From the sequence record PZ386969.1: a stretch of 64,000 nucleotides of DNA. One strand, written 5' to 3'. The notes under the pieces are model-generated. The model saw only the letters and a program-made list of their open reading frames with translations, was not told where the DNA came from and did not search any database. Both the position numbers and the translations under genes were made by a program. The stretch comes from a phage. Shown piece by piece: positions 4,537 through 54,964 of the stretch (its first letter is position 1; each line of letters opens with the position of its first letter).

Positions 4537-4704
4537 ATGTTACAAGATCTGTTGGTGTACGCGCTTCCTGGCGTTGTTGTCGGTTTCGTAGCTGGTGCTC
4601 TGGTCTTCCGTAAACACGCGCAAGACGGTGAAGTGATTGTTCAGAAGGGTAAGGACATCCTGGAACAAATCGAAGCCAAGCTGGAAGAGCTGAAGAAAAA
4701 GTAA
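4537..4704 (+). CDS. Small membrane protein (55 aa, not in ORF track)
   Basis: ATG 4537 to TAA 4702-4704 translated by hand: hydrophobic N-terminus then charged coiled tail; below the track size cut-off. Confidence 0.35.
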   Translation: MLQDLLVYALPGVVVGFVAGALVFRKHAQDGEVIVQKGKDILEQIEAKLEELKKK

Positions 4705-4724
4705 TCTGACTGCGGATTGCGTTC

Positions 4725-4750
4725 TTCAATAAAGGGGAATGGGTTAATAT
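4725..4750 (+). promoter_or_regulatory. Promoter-like motif TTCAATAAA-N11-TAATAT overlapping terminator hairpin
   Basis: TTCAAT 4725-4730, -10-like 4745-4750 in loop of hairpin 4734-4763. Confidence 0.45.
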
Positions 4751-4772
4751 TAGCCCGTTCCCCTTTCTTTTT
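4734..4772 (+). terminator. Rho-independent terminator
   Basis: 10-bp stem GGGGAATGGG/CCCGTTCCCC (one G-U) followed by TTTCTTTTT. Confidence 0.6.
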
Positions 4773-4786
4773 GCAAGGATTGATTT

Positions 4787-4978
4787 ATGACACCTCAATA
4801 CAAAATATTGGTCACCAGCCGTTGTTATGCTTATGGACAGGGTGAAGCAATATCAGTACACACAGTTGTAGTTGATTTTGAAAACAAAGAACAAGCAGAT
4901 TTGGCATTCTATAATATGCAGCAGAGCACAGCTCCTGCCGATATTGGCGTTAAACAAGTTTATACGAAATTATACTGA
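4787..4978 (+). CDS. Hypothetical protein
   Basis: ORF following terminator/promoter element. Confidence 0.4.
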   Translation: MTPQYKILVTSRCYAYGQGEAISVHTVVVDFENKEQADLAFYNMQQSTAPADIGVKQVYTKLY

Positions 4979-4989
4979 GGTCCTATATC

Positions 4990-5202
4990 ATGGCAATGCA
5001 ACGAATTGAAGACATGTCTGCGCTCGATATGGAAGCGACTTTTGGTGATTACTTTGAGTCCACCCCAAAACAAAAAGAACCTCTGGTTGGTCGTTTGGTT
5101 GTTTCTGAAGCGTTCGCCCAGAAGGTTCGCGAAGGTCTTCCTGCAGAATATAGTTGTTTCCGTAATGGCGCTCCTGTTATCGTCATGGGAGAATCTAAAT
5201 GA
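4990..5202 (+). CDS. Hypothetical protein
   Basis: ORF with GAGG upstream; tight spacing to next gene. Confidence 0.45.
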   Translation: MAMQRIEDMSALDMEATFGDYFESTPKQKEPLVGRLVVSEAFAQKVREGLPAEYSCFRNGAPVIVMGESK

Positions 5203-22000: not shown

Positions 22001-22243
22001 ATGAGCCCAGAATTTGAAAACCTGTTCGAGCGATGCTTCGAACCAGGTTCTGTGTCCGGTTACATGGACCGCCTTTGCACTGCCATTGTAATACGCCTTG
22101 CTGCCAAGGGTATCGTTGTCAACACCATTATCCGCAATGGGAACAACTTTATCATGCAGATGACTGATTATCACCACCGCACAGGCATCATCCAGGTGTC
22201 ATGTGTTGACAACAGCATTATTGAATGGAGACAGTACGCATGA
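22001..22243 (+). CDS. Hypothetical protein
   Basis: ORF; ATGA overlap with next gene. Confidence 0.4.
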   Translation: MSPEFENLFERCFEPGSVSGYMDRLCTAIVIRLAAKGIVVNTIIRNGNNFIMQMTDYHHRTGIIQVSCVDNSIIEWRQYA

Positions 22244-22839
22244 CAACTTATGTAATCAATGGCGGCGATCTACTGAAAGCCGCCTGTAGCTTCAATCTGA
22301 TCGACATCTTTGCCCACGGTGCCAACTGTTGGTCTACCATGGGCGCGGGTATTGCCCTGCACATCGGCAACAACTTCCCAGCGCTGCGCGAAGTCGATGC
22401 GAACGACCCTCGTGGTCCAGAGCAACGCCTGGGTGGCATGTCCTATGCATTTGACCACAGCACTGGTGTCTGGGGTGCGAACCTCTACACTCAGTTTTAT
22501 CCAGGTCCGAACGCTCGCATGCCGTCTGTCATCAGTTCTGTTCAGATGTTATTCGAGCAGGTTCACGAAATTGTGGAAGCAACTAAAGACGAAACTGTCT
22601 ATGTCGGCCTGCCTGCTATCGGCTGTGGTATTGGTGGCCTGAACCTCTACAGTGTAGTGCGCCATATCAATCGAATCTCTGAAAGCGTGTATGAAGAGAC
22701 CCGCCGTCGTGTCGTCCCAGTCTTCTATATCAGGGAAGGAGACGGATTCGATGATGATCTGATGGAACTTTCTCATCTGGGCACAGAAGGTATCATGATT
22801 GTCGAAGATGAGCAAGAAATCATCGACGAGGAGGGGTGA
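22240..22839 (+). CDS. Macro domain protein (ADP-ribose binding / hydrolase family)
   Basis: Macro-like motifs GDLLKAA..DIFAHGANCWSTMGAGIA and GLPAIGCGIGGL. Confidence 0.6.
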   Translation: MTTYVINGGDLLKAACSFNLIDIFAHGANCWSTMGAGIALHIGNNFPALREVDANDPRGPEQRLGGMSYAFDHSTGVWGANLYTQFYPGPNARMPSVISSVQMLFEQVHEIVEATKDETVYVGLPAIGCGIGGLNLYSVVRHINRISESVYEETRRRVVPVFYIREGDGFDDDLMELSHLGTEGIMIVEDEQEIIDEEG

Positions 22840-22842
22840 ATA

Positions 22843-23094
22843 ATGATATGTGCGTTTGATCAAGAATTTTATAAAAAGGTCAATATTCTAAAACTTGTCA
22901 TGTCTGGAACTAGTTCGAAAGAAGTATCAGAAATTTATTGTATTTCACAGGCCAGGGTGAGCCAGATTTTGAGGGAAACTATAGGGTTACTTTGCCCAGA
23001 GATAGAAATTAAGCGCGTCAACAAAAAGTTCATTGATGAAAATTATTATACAGTAAAAGCCAAAATAAAGTGTTGGGAGAATAAACATGTATAA
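22843..23094 (+). CDS. Small helix-turn-helix protein
   Basis: HTH-like segment SSKEVSEIYCISQARVSQILRE; sits in a locally AT-rich stretch. Confidence 0.4.
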   Translation: MICAFDQEFYKKVNILKLVMSGTSSKEVSEIYCISQARVSQILRETIGLLCPEIEIKRVNKKFIDENYYTVKAKIKCWENKHV

Positions 23095-23719
23095 ATCAAA
23101 TTTTTTGGCTGTGGCCGACAGTGAAACCTTGGGGCGCTGGGATGATGCAGTCATGCTGTCTTGGGCGCACACCATCGCCGACCTGACCAAGCGTTATACT
23201 CTTCAGCAGCTGGTTGAGGAGCGCACGACGTTCATTAAGCTGAATGTCAAAGAGCAGCTCGAACTTGGTCGCGTGAAGGACACTGGGACAGTTGAATGGT
23301 GGCTGGGCACGGGCAAGCGCAACCCGTGTGATGCGGCTCGCGCCGTCAGTCTGTACCCGACCGAGCAGGACATCTCTATCTTCCAGCTGGCCGATGAAAT
23401 CCGCAAAGGTTGTCATCGTCTTGGGGTAGACCCGCGCTCGGTTGACTGGTGTGACCGTAACTTGTTCGATCTGCGCAAGGCTCAGCACATCATTGAGGTG
23501 ACATGTAAGCAGGACTCCAACGAGCCTTGGGACTACCACCACACCTTCGACATCGTGAGTTGGCTGAAGGGTGTTGGACAGCAGGATCGGTATGCTGGTA
23601 TCAAGGCGTGGGAACTGGAAGGTATGGTCTATCATGACCCTCGTTATGACGCTGCGCTTGACTGGCTGCGTATTCAGAAGACCATGGAAGATCTGATGGG
23701 TCTGGAGGTTGTGGGATGA
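23087..23719 (+). CDS. DEDD-family 3'-5' exonuclease (DexA-like)
   Basis: Exo I-like ADSET motif near N-terminus and YHDPRYDA (Exo III-like) near C-terminus. Confidence 0.5.
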   Translation: MYKSNFLAVADSETLGRWDDAVMLSWAHTIADLTKRYTLQQLVEERTTFIKLNVKEQLELGRVKDTGTVEWWLGTGKRNPCDAARAVSLYPTEQDISIFQLADEIRKGCHRLGVDPRSVDWCDRNLFDLRKAQHIIEVTCKQDSNEPWDYHHTFDIVSWLKGVGQQDRYAGIKAWELEGMVYHDPRYDAALDWLRIQKTMEDLMGLEVVG

Positions 23720-24018
23720 TTGTATTCACTGTCATCGGTGTGATCGTAACAGCTGGGGTATTCACAGCCATATTGGGCTACCTGTACTTCATGTTCCTTC
23801 ATCCGTTATTTCAGGCGTTCAGTCTCACGAATTGGTACTTGGCCTGCCTAAAGGCCGACGGCGGCGTGAACACGGCCTCTCTTCCTTACTGGCGGCTGGT
23901 GGCGCATTACTACTCGGTCGGTGGCTGGCCTGGGGAAAGGACATGGAACTCTATCGGTGAGTGGTATGGAATAGGTCGATGGCGTATATTCCCTGATGAA
24001 GACGATCAAGCCCCGTGA
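23716..24018 (+). CDS. Membrane protein
   Basis: N-terminal TM helix. Confidence 0.45.
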   Translation: MIVFTVIGVIVTAGVFTAILGYLYFMFLHPLFQAFSLTNWYLACLKADGGVNTASLPYWRLVAHYYSVGGWPGERTWNSIGEWYGIGRWRIFPDEDDQAP

Positions 24019-24029
24019 GGGGCTTTTCT
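24008..24029 (+). terminator. Rho-independent terminator
   Basis: Stem AAGCCCC/GGGGCTT loop GTGA followed by TTC; overlaps the stop codon of the preceding gene. Confidence 0.5.
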
Positions 24030-24082
24030 ATATCCGGGATAGAGTATCATTGGTTCACCAACGAATCCTCGGGAGAGGCGAT

Positions 24083-24424
24083 ATGAAACGTTCGGTTGTT
24101 GTAAATGACATCACGAGATTGATAAACCTTGTCAAAGATGTGTTTCCACAACAGGTGGATGTCGAGTACGTGGGGAAGAACGGGAAGTGTTACCAGGTCG
24201 CTCTGTTGTTGAAGCACGTGTACCCTCAAGCAGAGATCCATTACAGTCAGACCGAAGGTCATGTGTATACTCTGATTGATGGGCATTACTACGACATCGA
24301 AGGCATCCACTTCAGTGTCCCACCGGATACGTGTTTGCTCGAACACAACAGAGGCCATAAACCCCATCGCTGGCATAAAGGGTTTGTGAACGTACCGATT
24401 TTAGAATGGTTGAGGAGACCATAA
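24083..24424 (+). CDS. Hypothetical protein
   Basis: ATG 24083 preceded by GGGAGAGG; in frame with track ORF 23996. Confidence 0.4.
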
Positions 24425-45997: not shown

Positions 45998-46837
45998 TTA
46001 CGCAGCAGCTTTCGCTTCAGCCAGAGCCTGTGGAAGCCATTCATTGATCGCCTTAACCAGAGACTCAGCATCAGACTCTTTGATCTTCTGACGTTTGGTG
46101 AAGGACTTGCCGTTCACGTACAGACTGAAGCCCCAGCCACCGGAAACGATAGGCGCAACGTCGACATACGTATTGGTGCGGGCGTGAAGGTTTTCAGGGT
46201 TAGCCAGTTCGGTGACCGGGAACTGGAACCAACGCATGTCTGGGTTCACGTAGCTCAGGAACACGCCGGGGACAACACCAGCTTCAATCGCCGCCAAGAC
46301 CGGACCGTGATTAGAAGCGCGAGCCAAGTCAACCATTTCCTCACGTTTGGTGTGACGGCGTTTACGCTCTACCAGCGCTGCCTGCGGGGTCAGGGTCTTA
46401 CCCTTCGATGCTTCTTTCAGCATAGAAGACGCTAAGGAACCGATTTTCGCGTCGGACGGCTGATTGCCTTCTTCCAGCGCCGCGTTGACTGCATCTTTAA
46501 CCGCGTCTACCGGGGCGTCGGACACTGGGGCTTCACATGCATCGGCAGAGATCGGTGCTTCAGCATCAACGGTTTCAGCGACTTTCAGGGATACTTCAGC
46601 TTGGGCTTGCTCTTGGGCTTGCGCCAGAGCCTGCTGAGTTTCTTCCTTCTCTTCGGCGCTCAGACCTTCAATCAGTTCGAAGCCGTTGGCAGCCTGAAGA
46701 ACACCTTCAACCATACGGCGCAGGGTAACGTTTCCGATGACCAGACCTGCTTCTTTGATTTCAGCCTGAATAGCAGCAACGTCTTTGCCTTCAATTTCAA
46801 TTTTGGTTCCAGAATCCACATGAAGAATATATGACAT
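45998..46837 (-). CDS. Hypothetical acidic protein
   Basis: ORF; Ala/Glu-rich linker and C-terminal globular region. Confidence 0.5.
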   Translation of the reverse strand: MSYILHVDSGTKIEIEGKDVAAIQAEIKEAGLVIGNVTLRRMVEGVLQAANGFELIEGLSAEEKEETQQALAQAQEQAQAEVSLKVAETVDAEAPISADACEAPVSDAPVDAVKDAVNAALEEGNQPSDAKIGSLASSMLKEASKGKTLTPQAALVERKRRHTKREEMVDLARASNHGPVLAAIEAGVVPGVFLSYVNPDMRWFQFPVTELANPENLHARTNTYVDVAPIVSGGWGFSLYVNGKSFTKRQKIKESDAESLVKAINEWLPQALAEAKAAA

Positions 46838-47026
46838 AATAAAAACCCTTTCGTTATTAAGACCGTATCCGCGGCATATTGTTGTTCTGACTGTGTAGTG
46901 AGAACATAATATACTGCATTTTCATAGATGTAAACTACTTTTTATTGAAAAGAAAGTTAACACCTTAGTGTTATAAGGTGCGCGACCAAGCGGAGCGCGA
47001 ACTTGCGTGAATATTAACTTTCTACG

Positions 47027-47308
47027 TCAATATAGAAAAACCATTTCCGGCGGCCAACAATTTGTTAGCTCGACTTTTGCGAACCGTGGTTGGCAGTACG
47101 CATCAACCGACTCATCAAACAGACAGTGTTCTACATTTGCAATCATCAGATCATCATCCACCACTTCAACAGAATGGACAATGATCTTGTGGTCATACGT
47201 CAGGCAACCGTCTAAATGCATGTTGTCGGCGCGGAGGTGTTGCATGATGAAATACTCTATGATCGACTCAAGGACAGTCGTCAGCTTCAGATAACGTTTC
47301 ATACACAC
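47027..47308 (-). CDS. Hypothetical protein
   Basis: ORF only. Confidence 0.3.
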   Translation of the reverse strand: MCMKRYLKLTTVLESIIEYFIMQHLRADNMHLDGCLTYDHKIIVHSVEVVDDDLMIANVEHCLFDESVDAYCQPRFAKVELTNCWPPEMVFLY

Positions 47309-53154: not shown

Positions 53155-53644
53155 AATCGCGCTCCACAACGTATTGGTAGACACGCATCTTAATATAGTC
53201 AGCACTGCCTGCTGAAGACAGCACCATCCATCCACTACTAAGGGCATTCATCTTATATTGACCAACACCCTCTTGAAAATAACTTTTAATCTGTTCCAGC
53301 TTTCGCACACGATGATAATACGAGATGAGTTCGCCGATGACAATACAATCTGGATAATGCTTTTCCAATGTATTGATGTTGCGGTGAACATATACGGGTA
53401 GAACTTCTTCATCGTCGATAGGGCTGTAGTATGGGTCTACAATGACCACTTGTAGACCATAACGCAGCAGGTCTTTGACACCCAGCCGACAGAACTTATA
53501 ATCTTCGTGTTTCATTGCCACATGGAGGATATTCTCTTTCTTGGCATAATCAGTCAGGAAGATAAAGAAGTCTGTGTTGGGATCGGGATATTGTATAGAC
53601 AGTTCTTTGCCTATTTCACTAAAACAAAATCCGCGCATTTTCAT
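53114..53644 (-). CDS. Hypothetical protein
   Basis: ORF only. Confidence 0.45.
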   Translation of the reverse strand: MKMRGFCFSEIGKELSIQYPDPNTDFFIFLTDYAKKENILHVAMKHEDYKFCRLGVKDLLRYGLQVVIVDPYYSPIDDEEVLPVYVHRNINTLEKHYPDCIVIGELISYYHRVRKLEQIKSYFQEGVGQYKMNALSSGWMVLSSAGSADYIKMRVYQYVVERDYELEKSNAKRKTR

Positions 53645-53687
53645 TCCTCGTTATAATTACTCTTACAATATACCGTGGAGATACATT

Positions 53688-54494
53688 ATGAATTTACCAT
53701 CATTGCCCAGAACAGAAAAGACATATAAAAGCGACTTTTGGCCTACTGTGATCAAATATCGCGCCTTTACTGCGGGGCAACAAACTTTATTACTTCAGGT
53801 GTCAGATCCGCAAACGCCGATTGAAGAACGCGCGGCCATGATGGAGAGTCTCTTTAGCGAGTGTGTAAATGCAGGCGCACCTTTCAGTAAACTGCCAATC
53901 GGCGTTGTTGAGGAAGTGTTCATCCGCATGCGCATGATCTCCATCGGTGAATTGATGAAGATTCGTTATAAGTGCAATAATCAGATTGAAGAAACGATCG
54001 ATCTGGGAGATGGTCAAGAAAAGCACCAGATGGTTCCCTGTGAGCAGGAACTGACTCTACCTATCCCGTTGAACAACGTCAAATGCATTGCTCAGGACGG
54101 CTTCCGGGAGACGTTTGACCTGCCAGGTGGATATCACCTCAAGATGCGCCAACCTTCCTTCTCGGACGCTACGGCACTGTCTGATGCTGCAAGCGTTGAG
54201 ATGATGCTGGCCACCTTTATCGACTGTCTGTACGATGATGACGGTCAGGTGTGGAAGGTTGAGAATCCTGAAGAAATCGGAATCACTCCGGAAGAGGCTA
54301 CTGAGCGCCGCCGTGTGAAAGAAGCGTTTGTTGAGTGGGTGAAGGATAACATCGAATCAGATGTTATTGACAGCATTACGAAGAACTTCTTCCATAAAAT
54401 ACCGCGCATCCACTACAAGAGTTCGATCAAGTGTCCGAAATGTGGTAAGGAGCACAAAATCGAATTCAATAGTATTAATGAAATTTTCATTTAA
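53688..54494 (+). CDS. Hypothetical protein with C-terminal zinc ribbon (possibly baseplate-associated)
   Basis: ATG 53688 with GGAG RBS; TTATAATTA upstream; CPKCG motif near C-terminus. Confidence 0.5.
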   Translation: MNLPSLPRTEKTYKSDFWPTVIKYRAFTAGQQTLLLQVSDPQTPIEERAAMMESLFSECVNAGAPFSKLPIGVVEEVFIRMRMISIGELMKIRYKCNNQIEETIDLGDGQEKHQMVPCEQELTLPIPLNNVKCIAQDGFRETFDLPGGYHLKMRQPSFSDATALSDAASVEMMLATFIDCLYDDDGQVWKVENPEEIGITPEEATERRRVKEAFVEWVKDNIESDVIDSITKNFFHKIPRIHYKSSIKCPKCGKEHKIEFNSINEIFI

Positions 54495-54643
54495 TGTTTG
54501 AAACTGATTTATTATCCTACTTCGTGATGTGTGATGAATTGAAGTTACACGGCTATAGCATATTTGAAATCAACGAGTCGATGCCATGGCATCTTGACTT
54601 GTTAACCGAAGCCCTCAAGGTCAGGTTGTCTAAGAAACAGTAA
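54494..54643 (+). CDS. Small ORF (49 aa, not in track)
   Basis: ATG overlapping the previous stop (TAATG); followed directly by a strong terminator. Confidence 0.3.
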   Translation: MFETDLLSYFVMCDELKLHGYSIFEINESMPWHLDLLTEALKVRLSKKQ

Positions 54644-54666
54644 TCCCGCTTCGGCGGGATTTTTAT
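54644..54666 (+). terminator. Rho-independent terminator
   Basis: Stem TCCCGC/GCGGGA loop TTCG followed by TTTTTATT. Confidence 0.7.
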
Positions 54667-54964
54667 TGGCTTAACTGTAAAATCGGTTAACACGCGCTCT
54701 TTTTACCTGAAATTGCTATAATGGGCTTGTTCCCGAGTCATTTGTTGGTGTTTGTCTGTTTTGAATCAGATTGTCAGTAAAATACCATTTTTCAAGGAGT
54801 GTTCTGGGGTGTACAGTTATTGCCTCGCCCTTATGCCTCCATGGCATTGGAATGGTGCTGCCCGCATAGGGCGGTTTGATGAGCGAAGCGAATAGGATCG
54901 AATAAAACAAATAAAATGAACGGAAGCAGAGCTTCCTATAGTATATAAGGCAAAATCAGCTGCG

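Follow-up and report, generated by a model that had tools for sequence, protein, structure and literature searches.

An AT-rich single-gene cassette, probably acquired horizontally, encodes a small HTH protein and candidate regulator between Tk.4 and dexA in Agtrevirus-like phages

Several described systems resemble the locus that is the subject of this report. Morons, described for lambdoid phages, are accessory genes located between conserved genes, and the classical moron has its own promoter and terminator. The free-standing homing genes of T4-like phages (seg, mob) are AT-rich intergenic insertions with a sporadic distribution and co-conversion of the flanking sequence. On plasmids, ArdK (R388) and KorA (RK2) are small HTH repressors with an N-terminal HTH and C-terminal dimerisation helices. 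The interface between sigma region 4 and the β-flap of RNA polymerase is often targeted by phages, for example by T4 AsiA, T4 gp33, Xp10 P7 and P23-45 gp39, and we know of no phage factor acting there that is itself a homologue of sigma region 4.

The locus reported here, a 247-bp cassette carrying an 83-aa open reading frame (ORF), shares features with each of these systems and is identical to none. As with morons, an extra gene of deviant composition is present in one phage and missing in close relatives; in contrast to the classical moron, the cassette has neither promoter nor terminator and depends on translational signals and the operon around it. With the T4-like homing genes it shares AT-rich intergenic insertion, sporadic distribution and co-conversion of the flanks, but it encodes only 83 aa, contains no nuclease domain and has no endonuclease gene next to it. 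The gene is thus neither a sigma factor, nor a homing endonuclease, nor a classical moron, and its product would work most like a stand-alone HTH regulator of the sigma-4/LuxR type. It is a new, nearly orphan case of a familiar class, namely small HTH accessory genes that are exchanged among lytic phages.

The reading we favour, with a probability of roughly 55%, is that of a horizontally acquired single-gene accessory cassette that encodes a small, trans-acting, DNA-binding regulator. According to this proposal, 247 bp from an AT-rich donor would have entered a hypervariable slot between the genes Tk.4 and dexA, and homologous recombination via the flanking genes would then have passed them on among phages of the Agtrevirus and Kuttervirus types. 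The cassette ORF borrows the Shine-Dalgarno sequence of dexA and gives dexA a replacement, so that the neighbouring genes stay intact. The Tk.4-dexA operon would supply the small HTH protein early in infection, and the protein would bind DNA and alter the transcription of pre-existing host or phage targets, with its C-terminal helical hairpin as a plausible dimerisation element. The observations below show the insertion with its composition and patchy distribution, the recombination tracts, the intact frame with its surplus of synonymous changes, and the HTH fold; DNA binding and modulation of host or phage transcription in trans, and hence the term regulatory, are what we infer from them.

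The window, i.e., the whole 64-kb stretch of DNA that was analysed (PZ386969.1), is by nucleotide identity derived from an Agtrevirus-like member of the Ackermannviridae, a family of candidate therapeutic and biocontrol phages. In a BLAST search that matched 208 records, a 3-kb region containing the locus showed 97.3–97.4% identity to the Escherichia phages vB_EcoA_4HA11 and AV101, the latter being an Agtrevirus (PMC10791037), 96–97% identity to a group of Ackermannviridae of E. coli, Enterobacter and Salmonella, and 82–90% identity to many Kuttervirus-type Salmonella phages. The 83-aa ORF lies on the + strand within an early-gene cluster that comprises rIIA, rIIB, topoisomerase subunits, Tk.4, dexA, a phosphatase and dCMP deaminase, and is situated in the early host-takeover region. 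The features referred to below are the following:

22225–22839, + strand: Tk.4, the macro-like gene on the left flank (PHROG 335, E 8e-64; named Tk.4 in relatives)
22830–22834, + strand: Shine-Dalgarno sequence GGAGG inside Tk.4 at its 3' end, 8 nt upstream of the ATG of the 83-aa ORF
22835–23129, + strand: recombinant tract in the lineage of the window, made up of the substituted Tk.4 stop region, the cassette and a dexA 5' end of Kuttervirus type
22840–23086, + strand: 247-bp insertion relative to cassette-less relatives (from the annotation of RPN242 and fGh-Ecl02 and from junction alignment)
22843–23094, + strand: 83-aa ORF for a small HTH protein (from the ORF list)
23075–23079, + strand: cassette-borne Shine-Dalgarno sequence GGGAG, 7 nt before the ATG of dexA
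23087–23719, + strand: dexA, the exonuclease gene on the right flank (PHROG 255, E 8e-53; DexA exonuclease in the annotation of relatives)

The 83-aa ORF is located between the stop codon of Tk.4 (22837–22839) and the ATG of dexA at 23087. In annotated relatives Tk.4 starts at the ATG at 22241, and its match to the Pfam Macro family is below threshold (E 0.011). The records of 4HA11, AV101, SilasIsHot and vB_STmST313_KE31 (KE31) list the ORF product as a hypothetical protein.

A preliminary description had judged the segment by eye to be more AT-rich than its neighbours, and had seen in it a recently acquired insert between a macro-domain gene and an exonuclease gene; both impressions are borne out by measurement. 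The ORF has a GC content of 32.5%, whereas the window as a whole has 49.5%; its z-score is -4.4, and no more than 0.04% of the 252-nt windows reach so low a value. The minimum of the sliding-window curve over the entire 64 kb (31.0% for 252 nt) starts at 22855, inside the ORF. The edges are sharp, as the GC fraction of 60-nt windows falls from 0.47–0.57 to 0.25–0.32 and is back at 0.62 by 23111. Every other ORF of ≥50 aa in the window has a GC content of 37% or more. Among the 87 non-overlapping ORFs of ≥70 aa in the window, the 83-aa ORF also has the lowest GC3 (0.34 versus 0.575 ± 0.063, z = -3.8), which places the skew at synonymous positions and means that it is not solely an effect of amino-acid composition. 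Such a skew at synonymous sites is as expected for foreign DNA that has not been ameliorated.

The position as an insert follows from the comparison with near relatives. 4HA11 and AV101 have the 83-aa ORF annotated between Tk.4 and DexA, and nine other relatives that are ~96–97% identical over the region (RPN242, LHE287, ZQ1, YX22, A221, fGh-Ecl02, PC3, PH4 and CECAV_050) lack it, their BLAST alignments falling into at least two pieces with a gap of ~250 bp and 92% coverage. In the two of these nine that were inspected, RPN242 and fGh-Ecl02, exactly 247 bp are absent and the ATG of dexA directly follows the stop codon of Tk.4, the empty junction reading GGAGGCGTAA|ATG; for the other seven, absence is read from the BLAST gap. 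The gene is therefore far from being conserved in all relatives, and, given the GC difference as well, neither of the two refuting outcomes named in the preliminary description is observed. Its presence also does not track overall relatedness, since over the adjacent 24 kb the closest of the 16 records listed are cassette-less (fGh-Ecl02 98.2%, CECAV_050 98.1%), followed by the likewise cassette-less YX22 and RPN242 (97.9%) and ZQ1 (97.8%), and the carrier AV101 stands at 97.5%; 4HA11 is outside these 16 records.

The borders of the cassette lie in Shine-Dalgarno sequences, and the translation signals of the neighbouring genes are thereby kept. The GGAGG motif at 22830–22834 is the Shine-Dalgarno sequence of dexA in cassette-less phages. 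Only 3 nt separate the stop codon of Tk.4 from the start of the 83-aa ORF, and at the other end the stop codon of the ORF (23092–23094) and the start of dexA overlap in ATGTATAA, with 8 nt shared by the two genes. The two borders carry an imperfect 10-nt direct repeat (GGGTGAATAA / GGGAGAATAA), which fits recombination at Shine-Dalgarno microhomology, although a match of 9/10 could also be due to chance; other repeats in the cassette are short and at chance level. A scan that covered sigma-70-type signals only detected no such promoter and no intrinsic terminator in or beside 22840–23086, so that the cassette is presumably transcribed within the surrounding + strand operon, and an Rfam search of 22500–23400 gave no match. 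A non-coding or regulatory element was rejected on these grounds: no Rfam match, no promoter, no terminator, and chance-level repeats beyond the Shine-Dalgarno-like borders. No operator or DNA target for the 83-aa protein was found in the cassette segment. Nearly all of the 247 bp is coding, which means that a DNA target cannot have travelled with the cassette; as the cassette leaves no space for its own operator, whatever target there is would already exist in the recipient phage or in the host.

The reading frame is intact in the seven copies compared, despite their AT-richness. Nine sites vary among them, six synonymously and three non-synonymously (I2M, T23S and K72N), which, with 47.7 synonymous against 201.3 non-synonymous sites available, is an excess of synonymous change (Fisher p = 0.002). 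This suggests purifying selection on the 83-aa ORF, with the reservation that the test draws on nine sites and on copies that are closely related and not independent. We accordingly consider it extremely unlikely that the segment is no gene but regulatory DNA, or an AT-rich spacer in which the ORF arose by chance. The ORF is indeed short, lacks a significant family match and is annotated as hypothetical everywhere, but AT-rich DNA is rich in stop codons, and yet 83 codons are open in all copies. Furthermore, the tight packing, the Shine-Dalgarno sequence and the 8-nt overlap with dexA, the predominance of synonymous over non-synonymous changes, the segment being devoid of promoter, terminator and Rfam match, and, as set out below, a confidently predicted helical fold with a canonical HTH and significant similarity to region 4 of a sigma factor all speak for a gene.

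The assignment of the protein to a family comes from one significant homologue and from a predicted structure; the curated family models place it near several HTH families, with scores that reach none of the Pfam or NCBIfam thresholds. The best Pfam matches are Sigma70_r4 (PF04545; 16.6 bits, E 0.0055, residues 24–47, threshold 24.1), GerE/LuxR (PF00196; 16.4 bits, E 0.0069, gathering threshold 23.5) and HTH_28 (16.7 bits, E 0.0077, below its gathering score); among NCBIfam models, TIGR02937 (sigma70-ECF) matches with E 7e-5, under its cut-off, and FliA/WhiG with E 0.029, and the PHROG matches are to sigma-factor PHROGs. The resemblance to sigma region 4 or to a LuxR-type HTH lies in residues ~11–50. 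No nuclease domain was detected with Pfam, PHROGs or NCBIfam. Sigma70_r2 gave no match in the protein, and no region-2 ORF is adjacent to it in the window; as the protein has neither region 2 nor region 3, it cannot be a sigma factor. A defence or anti-defence system was rejected, PADLOC having returned no match.

A HMMER scan of 1.84 billion representative proteins returned five proteins. One of them, P0004 (64 aa), is 59% identical over residues 11–47 (37 aa), with E 3.9e-4 against 1.84e9 proteins, and itself scores 41.5 bits on PF04545, above the threshold. On its two contigs, which come from a bacterial chromosome of 35% GC, P0004 immediately follows a Sigma70_r2 ORF, and reading of the frames showed that it is the 3' part of a single sigma-factor gene split by a frameshift. 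The sole outside relative is thus a genuine sigma region 4, and the 83-aa protein has a significant match to a true member of PF04545. Three other HMMER matches are tandem HTH repeat proteins. Weak tblastn matches were obtained to the C-terminal HTH of a LAGLIDADG endonuclease of a Streptomyces phage (41% over 39 aa, E 0.01) and to a hypothetical protein of a Klebsiella jumbo phage, and both are generic HTH resemblance. A search of PDB chain sequences gave nothing meaningful, the best match being a designed repeat protein (E 0.19).

AlphaFold2, run on an input alignment of three sequences only, yielded a model with a mean pLDDT of 88.5 and a pTM of 0.77 (the other four models: 88, 72, 71 and 46). 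The predicted helices span residues 2–20, 25–32, 36–50, 61–66 and 68–82, with the HTH formed by 25–32 and 36–50 and a loop at 51–60. The fold is accordingly predicted to be a sigma-4/LuxR-like HTH (residues ~2–50) followed by a C-terminal helical hairpin, which might possibly serve dimerisation. In Foldseek searches, no match to another protein reached E < 0.09 and none in the PDB E < 0.2; locally, 38–48 residues superpose at 1–2 Å on LuxR/GerE-type domains and on sigma region 4, the targets being VpsT, GerE, NarL, ComA, DosR, SigF region 4, chimeras of SigA region 4 with the β-flap, and a SigF/anti-sigma complex. VpsT, GerE and ComA align over 38–45 residues at 1.2–1.5 Å with a probability of 0.95–0.97 and E 0.7–0.9, and SigF region 4 (46–47 residues, 1.8–2.2 Å) and SigA region 4 (48 residues, 2.2 Å) with a Foldseek E of ~1. 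In BFVD the sole strong match is the same protein, and weaker matches comprise 74–78-aa phage proteins named sigma-70 region 4 domains as well as uncharacterised small phage proteins. Taken with the homology to P0004, the local superpositions uphold the earlier proposal of a sigma-region-4 or LuxR-like HTH, for which the preliminary description had named assignment by HMM as a check; all of the HMM matches concerned remain sub-threshold.

The likeness to sigma-70 region 4 thus consists in the HTH pattern '..KEVSEIYCISQARVSQIL..', in the 59% identity to P0004, in a long helix followed by the HTH, and in the occurrence of the 74–78-aa domain-only phage proteins among the structural matches; the 83-aa protein differs from it in an extra C-terminal helical hairpin of 33 residues. 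With the LuxR/GerE HTH (PF00196) it shares the local superposition of 38–45 residues, and GerE is likewise a stand-alone small regulator; however, the model has a 10-residue loop after the recognition helix where the fourth helix of LuxR is tightly packed, and the Foldseek E-values are only 0.7–1.5. ArdK and KorA, which are of similar size and also have an HTH followed by a helical tail, are the top full-length Foldseek matches (77–81 columns), but these are weak (E 0.2–1.3), with an rmsd of 8–13 Å and 14–22% identity; the two parts do not superpose, and no sequence relation was detected. The protein can be placed among the sigma-4/LuxR-type HTHs although it is nearly an orphan.

The kinship with sigma region 4 raises the alternative that the protein is a sigma-region-4 mimic, which docks on the β-flap tip of RNA polymerase or titrates away one of the partners of sigma region 4 (an anti-sigma factor or activator, for instance), and which would shift host -35-dependent transcription in early infection. 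P0004, the nearest outside relative, is a true sigma region 4, the best NCBIfam models are those of sigma factors, the Foldseek matches include the SigA-region-4/β-flap chimeras and the SigF/anti-sigma complex, and the gene sits in the early host-takeover region, with an interface in question that phages commonly attack. On the other hand, the phage factors known at this interface are not homologues of sigma region 4, the similarity is centred on the DNA-recognition HTH (residues 24–48) and not specifically on the residues that contact the flap, and LuxR-type DNA-binding domains match just as well, so that we regard the mimic as unlikely. A more elaborate version, to which we would give still less credence, is a nuclease-free mobile gene that arose as a free-standing sigma-4 decoy, captured from an AT-rich sigma-factor gene and reprogramming host transcription; the decoy would occupy the β-flap of RNA polymerase or titrate an anti-sigma factor or activator. 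To our knowledge, a homologue of sigma region 4 that acts as a mimic has not been described as a class of phage takeover factor, and, if true, the decoy would constitute such a class in lytic Ackermannviridae. Were the target of the 83-aa protein to be identified, the protein could join the early host-takeover functions of Ackermannviridae as a small transcription modulator; as it stands, the gene is an ordinary accessory gene and leaves the general picture unchanged.

The cassette is rare within the family. Among 50,697 phage records, its DNA (blastn, E <= 0.01) and its protein (tblastn) were found in four, namely 4HA11, AV101, Salmonella phage SilasIsHot and KE31, and one further copy each is present on the IMG/VR contig L007 and on the metagenome contig L031. 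All full-length copies are in Ackermannviridae and at the same Tk.4|dexA site. The cassette was not found in the genomes of 185,579 prokaryotic (bacterial and archaeal) species, represented by one genome each, and among 5.8 billion proteins the 83-aa protein forms a single cluster of its own (P0001). An AT-rich donor or another genomic context was detected neither in the phage records, IMG/VR, metagenomes and prokaryotic genomes nor in the protein sets (5.8 billion proteins and 1.84 billion representatives). The 83-aa gene is not discussed in the AV101 paper, in which several variable genes are listed as hypothetical, nor in a review of the Ackermannviridae.

Copies of the cassette are far more alike than the DNA on either side of it: they are mutually 97.6–99.2% identical, whereas the identity of the flanks goes down to 60–90%. 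SilasIsHot is 96–100% identical to the window only across 22620–23218, i.e., the cassette plus short flanks, and ~60–90% identical in the neighbouring genes, a rise from ~75% to 97–100%. In KE31, the left identity break coincides with the border of the cassette. The genome on L031 is window-like (95–100% identical) except for the last 200 nt of Tk.4, which are only 64% identical and are of the Kuttervirus type, matching the KE31 / L027-type end; this 3' end evidently travelled together with the cassette. Altogether, three different haplotypes of Tk.4 3' ends are joined to the cassette.

In the lineage of the window, the recombinant tract consists of two substitutions at the stop of Tk.4, the cassette and a Kuttervirus-type dexA 5' end of ~30–45 nt that was carried along. 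In dexA, 10 differences between the window and RPN242 fall within the first 48 nt and 18 within the remaining 585 nt; the 10 lie in 23092–23129, and all 10 are synonymous. Up to 23115, dexA of the window equals that of the cassette-less Kuttervirus-type contigs L024 and L025, from which it differs by ~20% over the whole gene. That the clustered silent changes represent a cassette-specific immunity allele was rejected, because the same allele occurs in the cassette-less Kuttervirus-type contigs L024–L026; its presence in such phages rather marks the silent changes as a co-converted donor flank. These patterns indicate a Kuttervirus-type background as the source of the cassette in the lineage of the window, and they further indicate that the cassette has spread horizontally, recently and by recombination. 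The notion of a recent acquisition is hence in keeping with copies that are much more similar than their flanks and with the rarity of the cassette in the family. With recombination tracts still visible in its flanks, the locus offers a clean, well-delimited case of a single gene moving across genera of lytic phages. Selfishness or neutral hitch-hiking, and not a benefit to the phage, could lie behind the spread.

A relic of a selfish element would account for several of these patterns, i.e., the DNA-binding module of a degraded homing endonuclease, or the passenger of an endonuclease encoded elsewhere, that would persist through gene conversion and not through usefulness. The intergenic insertion, the AT-richness, the patchy distribution, the co-conversion of the flanks and the near-identity across diverged backgrounds agree with such an origin, as do the weak HTH likeness to the LAGLIDADG endonuclease of the Streptomyces phage and the variation of homing nucleases across Ackermannviridae (PMC10791037). 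However, the 83 aa contain no nuclease domain or motif, and neither the tblastn search of the phage records nor the searches of 5.8 billion and 1.84 billion proteins revealed a larger, nuclease-bearing homologue. The predicted domain is complete, the ORF has a Shine-Dalgarno sequence to itself and varies mainly at synonymous sites, the silent dexA changes are a pre-existing allele of cassette-less phages, and in AV101 the closest gene annotated for homing, SegD-like, is ~21 kb away. A homing origin thus fits the population-genetic pattern but fails the defining test, as there is no nuclease here or adjacent, and a homing endonuclease or its remnant was rejected; the relic is, in our judgement, quite improbable.

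The remaining alternative to the acquired cassette concerns the slot itself, namely that the gene is ancestral, that most lineages have lost it by precise deletion, and that its AT-richness has a functional cause. A survey of 19 IMG/VR relatives and of GenBank loci revealed at least four states of the Tk.4|dexA slot:

State 1: empty junction
State 2: an unrelated 112–130-aa ORF of normal GC content, in most Kuttervirus-type phages
State 3: other sequence, in L024
State 4: the 247-bp cassette

Some gene is thus held in the slot by most Kuttervirus-type phages, and T4-like phages commonly lose small early genes by deletion, both of which would suit an ancestral gene. Nevertheless, the usual occupant is unrelated to the cassette and of normal GC content, the GC3 of the 83-aa ORF is an extreme outlier, and the copies of the cassette have stayed nearly identical while their flanks have diverged. 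In addition, the cassette-less near relatives carry a different dexA 5' allele, and are therefore not simple deletion derivatives. An ancestral gene with repeated losses is disfavoured by these findings and appears very unlikely. The 112–130-aa ORF that most often fills the slot belongs to no Pfam family, and it is also present in a distant phage with 75% DexA identity.

The junction between the macro-like gene Tk.4 and the exonuclease gene dexA (window 22839/23087) is a hot spot that takes several states among Ackermannviridae, as read from the window together with the loci of its IMG/VR relatives (L012-L030, around position 2500). The junction can be empty, or it can hold an ORF of 112-130 aa with normal GC and without a Pfam family, which is the state of most Kuttervirus-type phages and of a distant relative whose DexA is 75% identical. 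A different sequence occupies the site in the cassette-less Kuttervirus-type locus L024, and a further state is the AT-rich HTH cassette itself.

Mosaic identity is seen inside Tk.4 (window 22320-22570), where the cassette-bearing phage KE31 matches the window at 99-100% over 22370-22519 and at 62-78% on both sides, and where SilasIsHot, also a cassette carrier, has the opposite pattern, which points to additional short recombination tracts that are independent of the cassette. In one IMG/VR Kuttervirus-type genome (L015, 1552-2167), Tk.4 is split into ORFs of 108 and 144 aa, an apparent frameshift or sequencing error.

On the other side of the junction, the dexA start (window 23090-23096) reads ATGTATAAATC in the cassette-bearing and Kuttervirus-type alleles. 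This includes TATAAAT, which is similar to the T4-type late-promoter core TATAAATA and is absent from the RPN242-type dexA allele, ATGTACAAGTC, of a cassette-less relative; the motif is probably a coincidence of Met-Tyr-Lys codons. Two features lie further downstream:

Window 24008-24025, hairpin resembling a terminator (AAGCCCCGTGAGGGGCTT, then a T-run), overlapping the stop of ORF 23716-24018
Window ~24019-24083 (L004 3773-4734; L005 3880-5007), second variable slot, ~1 kb downstream of the Tk.4/dexA junction

The hairpin is a possible end point for the transcription unit to which Tk.4, the cassette and dexA belong. The second slot holds one or two additional genes, among them a "putative alpha hydrolase / QueC-like" gene, in fGh-Ecl02, SilasIsHot, Gloob, ChubbyThor and others, and none in the window, 4HA11, AV101 and RPN242.

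The taxonomy labels of several of these records look inconsistent. 4HA11 (GenBank MN445184) and AV101 (OQ973471) are each ~97% identical to the window over the cassette region and their cassette copies are nearly the same, yet their records place them in different subfamilies (Cvivirinae/Kuttervirus and Aglimvirinae, respectively), and the cassette-less fGh-Ecl02 is also filed as Kuttervirus.

Further low-GC patches occur in the window at 4650-5100, 46690-47158, 53425-53839 and 54259-54736, with minimum GC of 0.35-0.37 in 252-nt windows. None of the four contains an ORF of at least 50 aa with GC below 37%; the patches may therefore represent intergenic or regulatory sequence.

P0004, the sole outside relative of the HTH protein, is the region-4 part of a frameshift-split sigma-factor gene, which lies on a bacterial chromosome of 35% GC and was located in two contigs:

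L008 5565-6195, split sigma-factor gene
L009 3506-4136, split sigma-factor gene

The gene consists of a 93-aa region-2 ORF and a 64-aa region-4 ORF, and the split, present in two independent assemblies, could mean that the gene is a pseudogene, that its frameshift is programmed, or that the sigma factor is genuinely made in two pieces.
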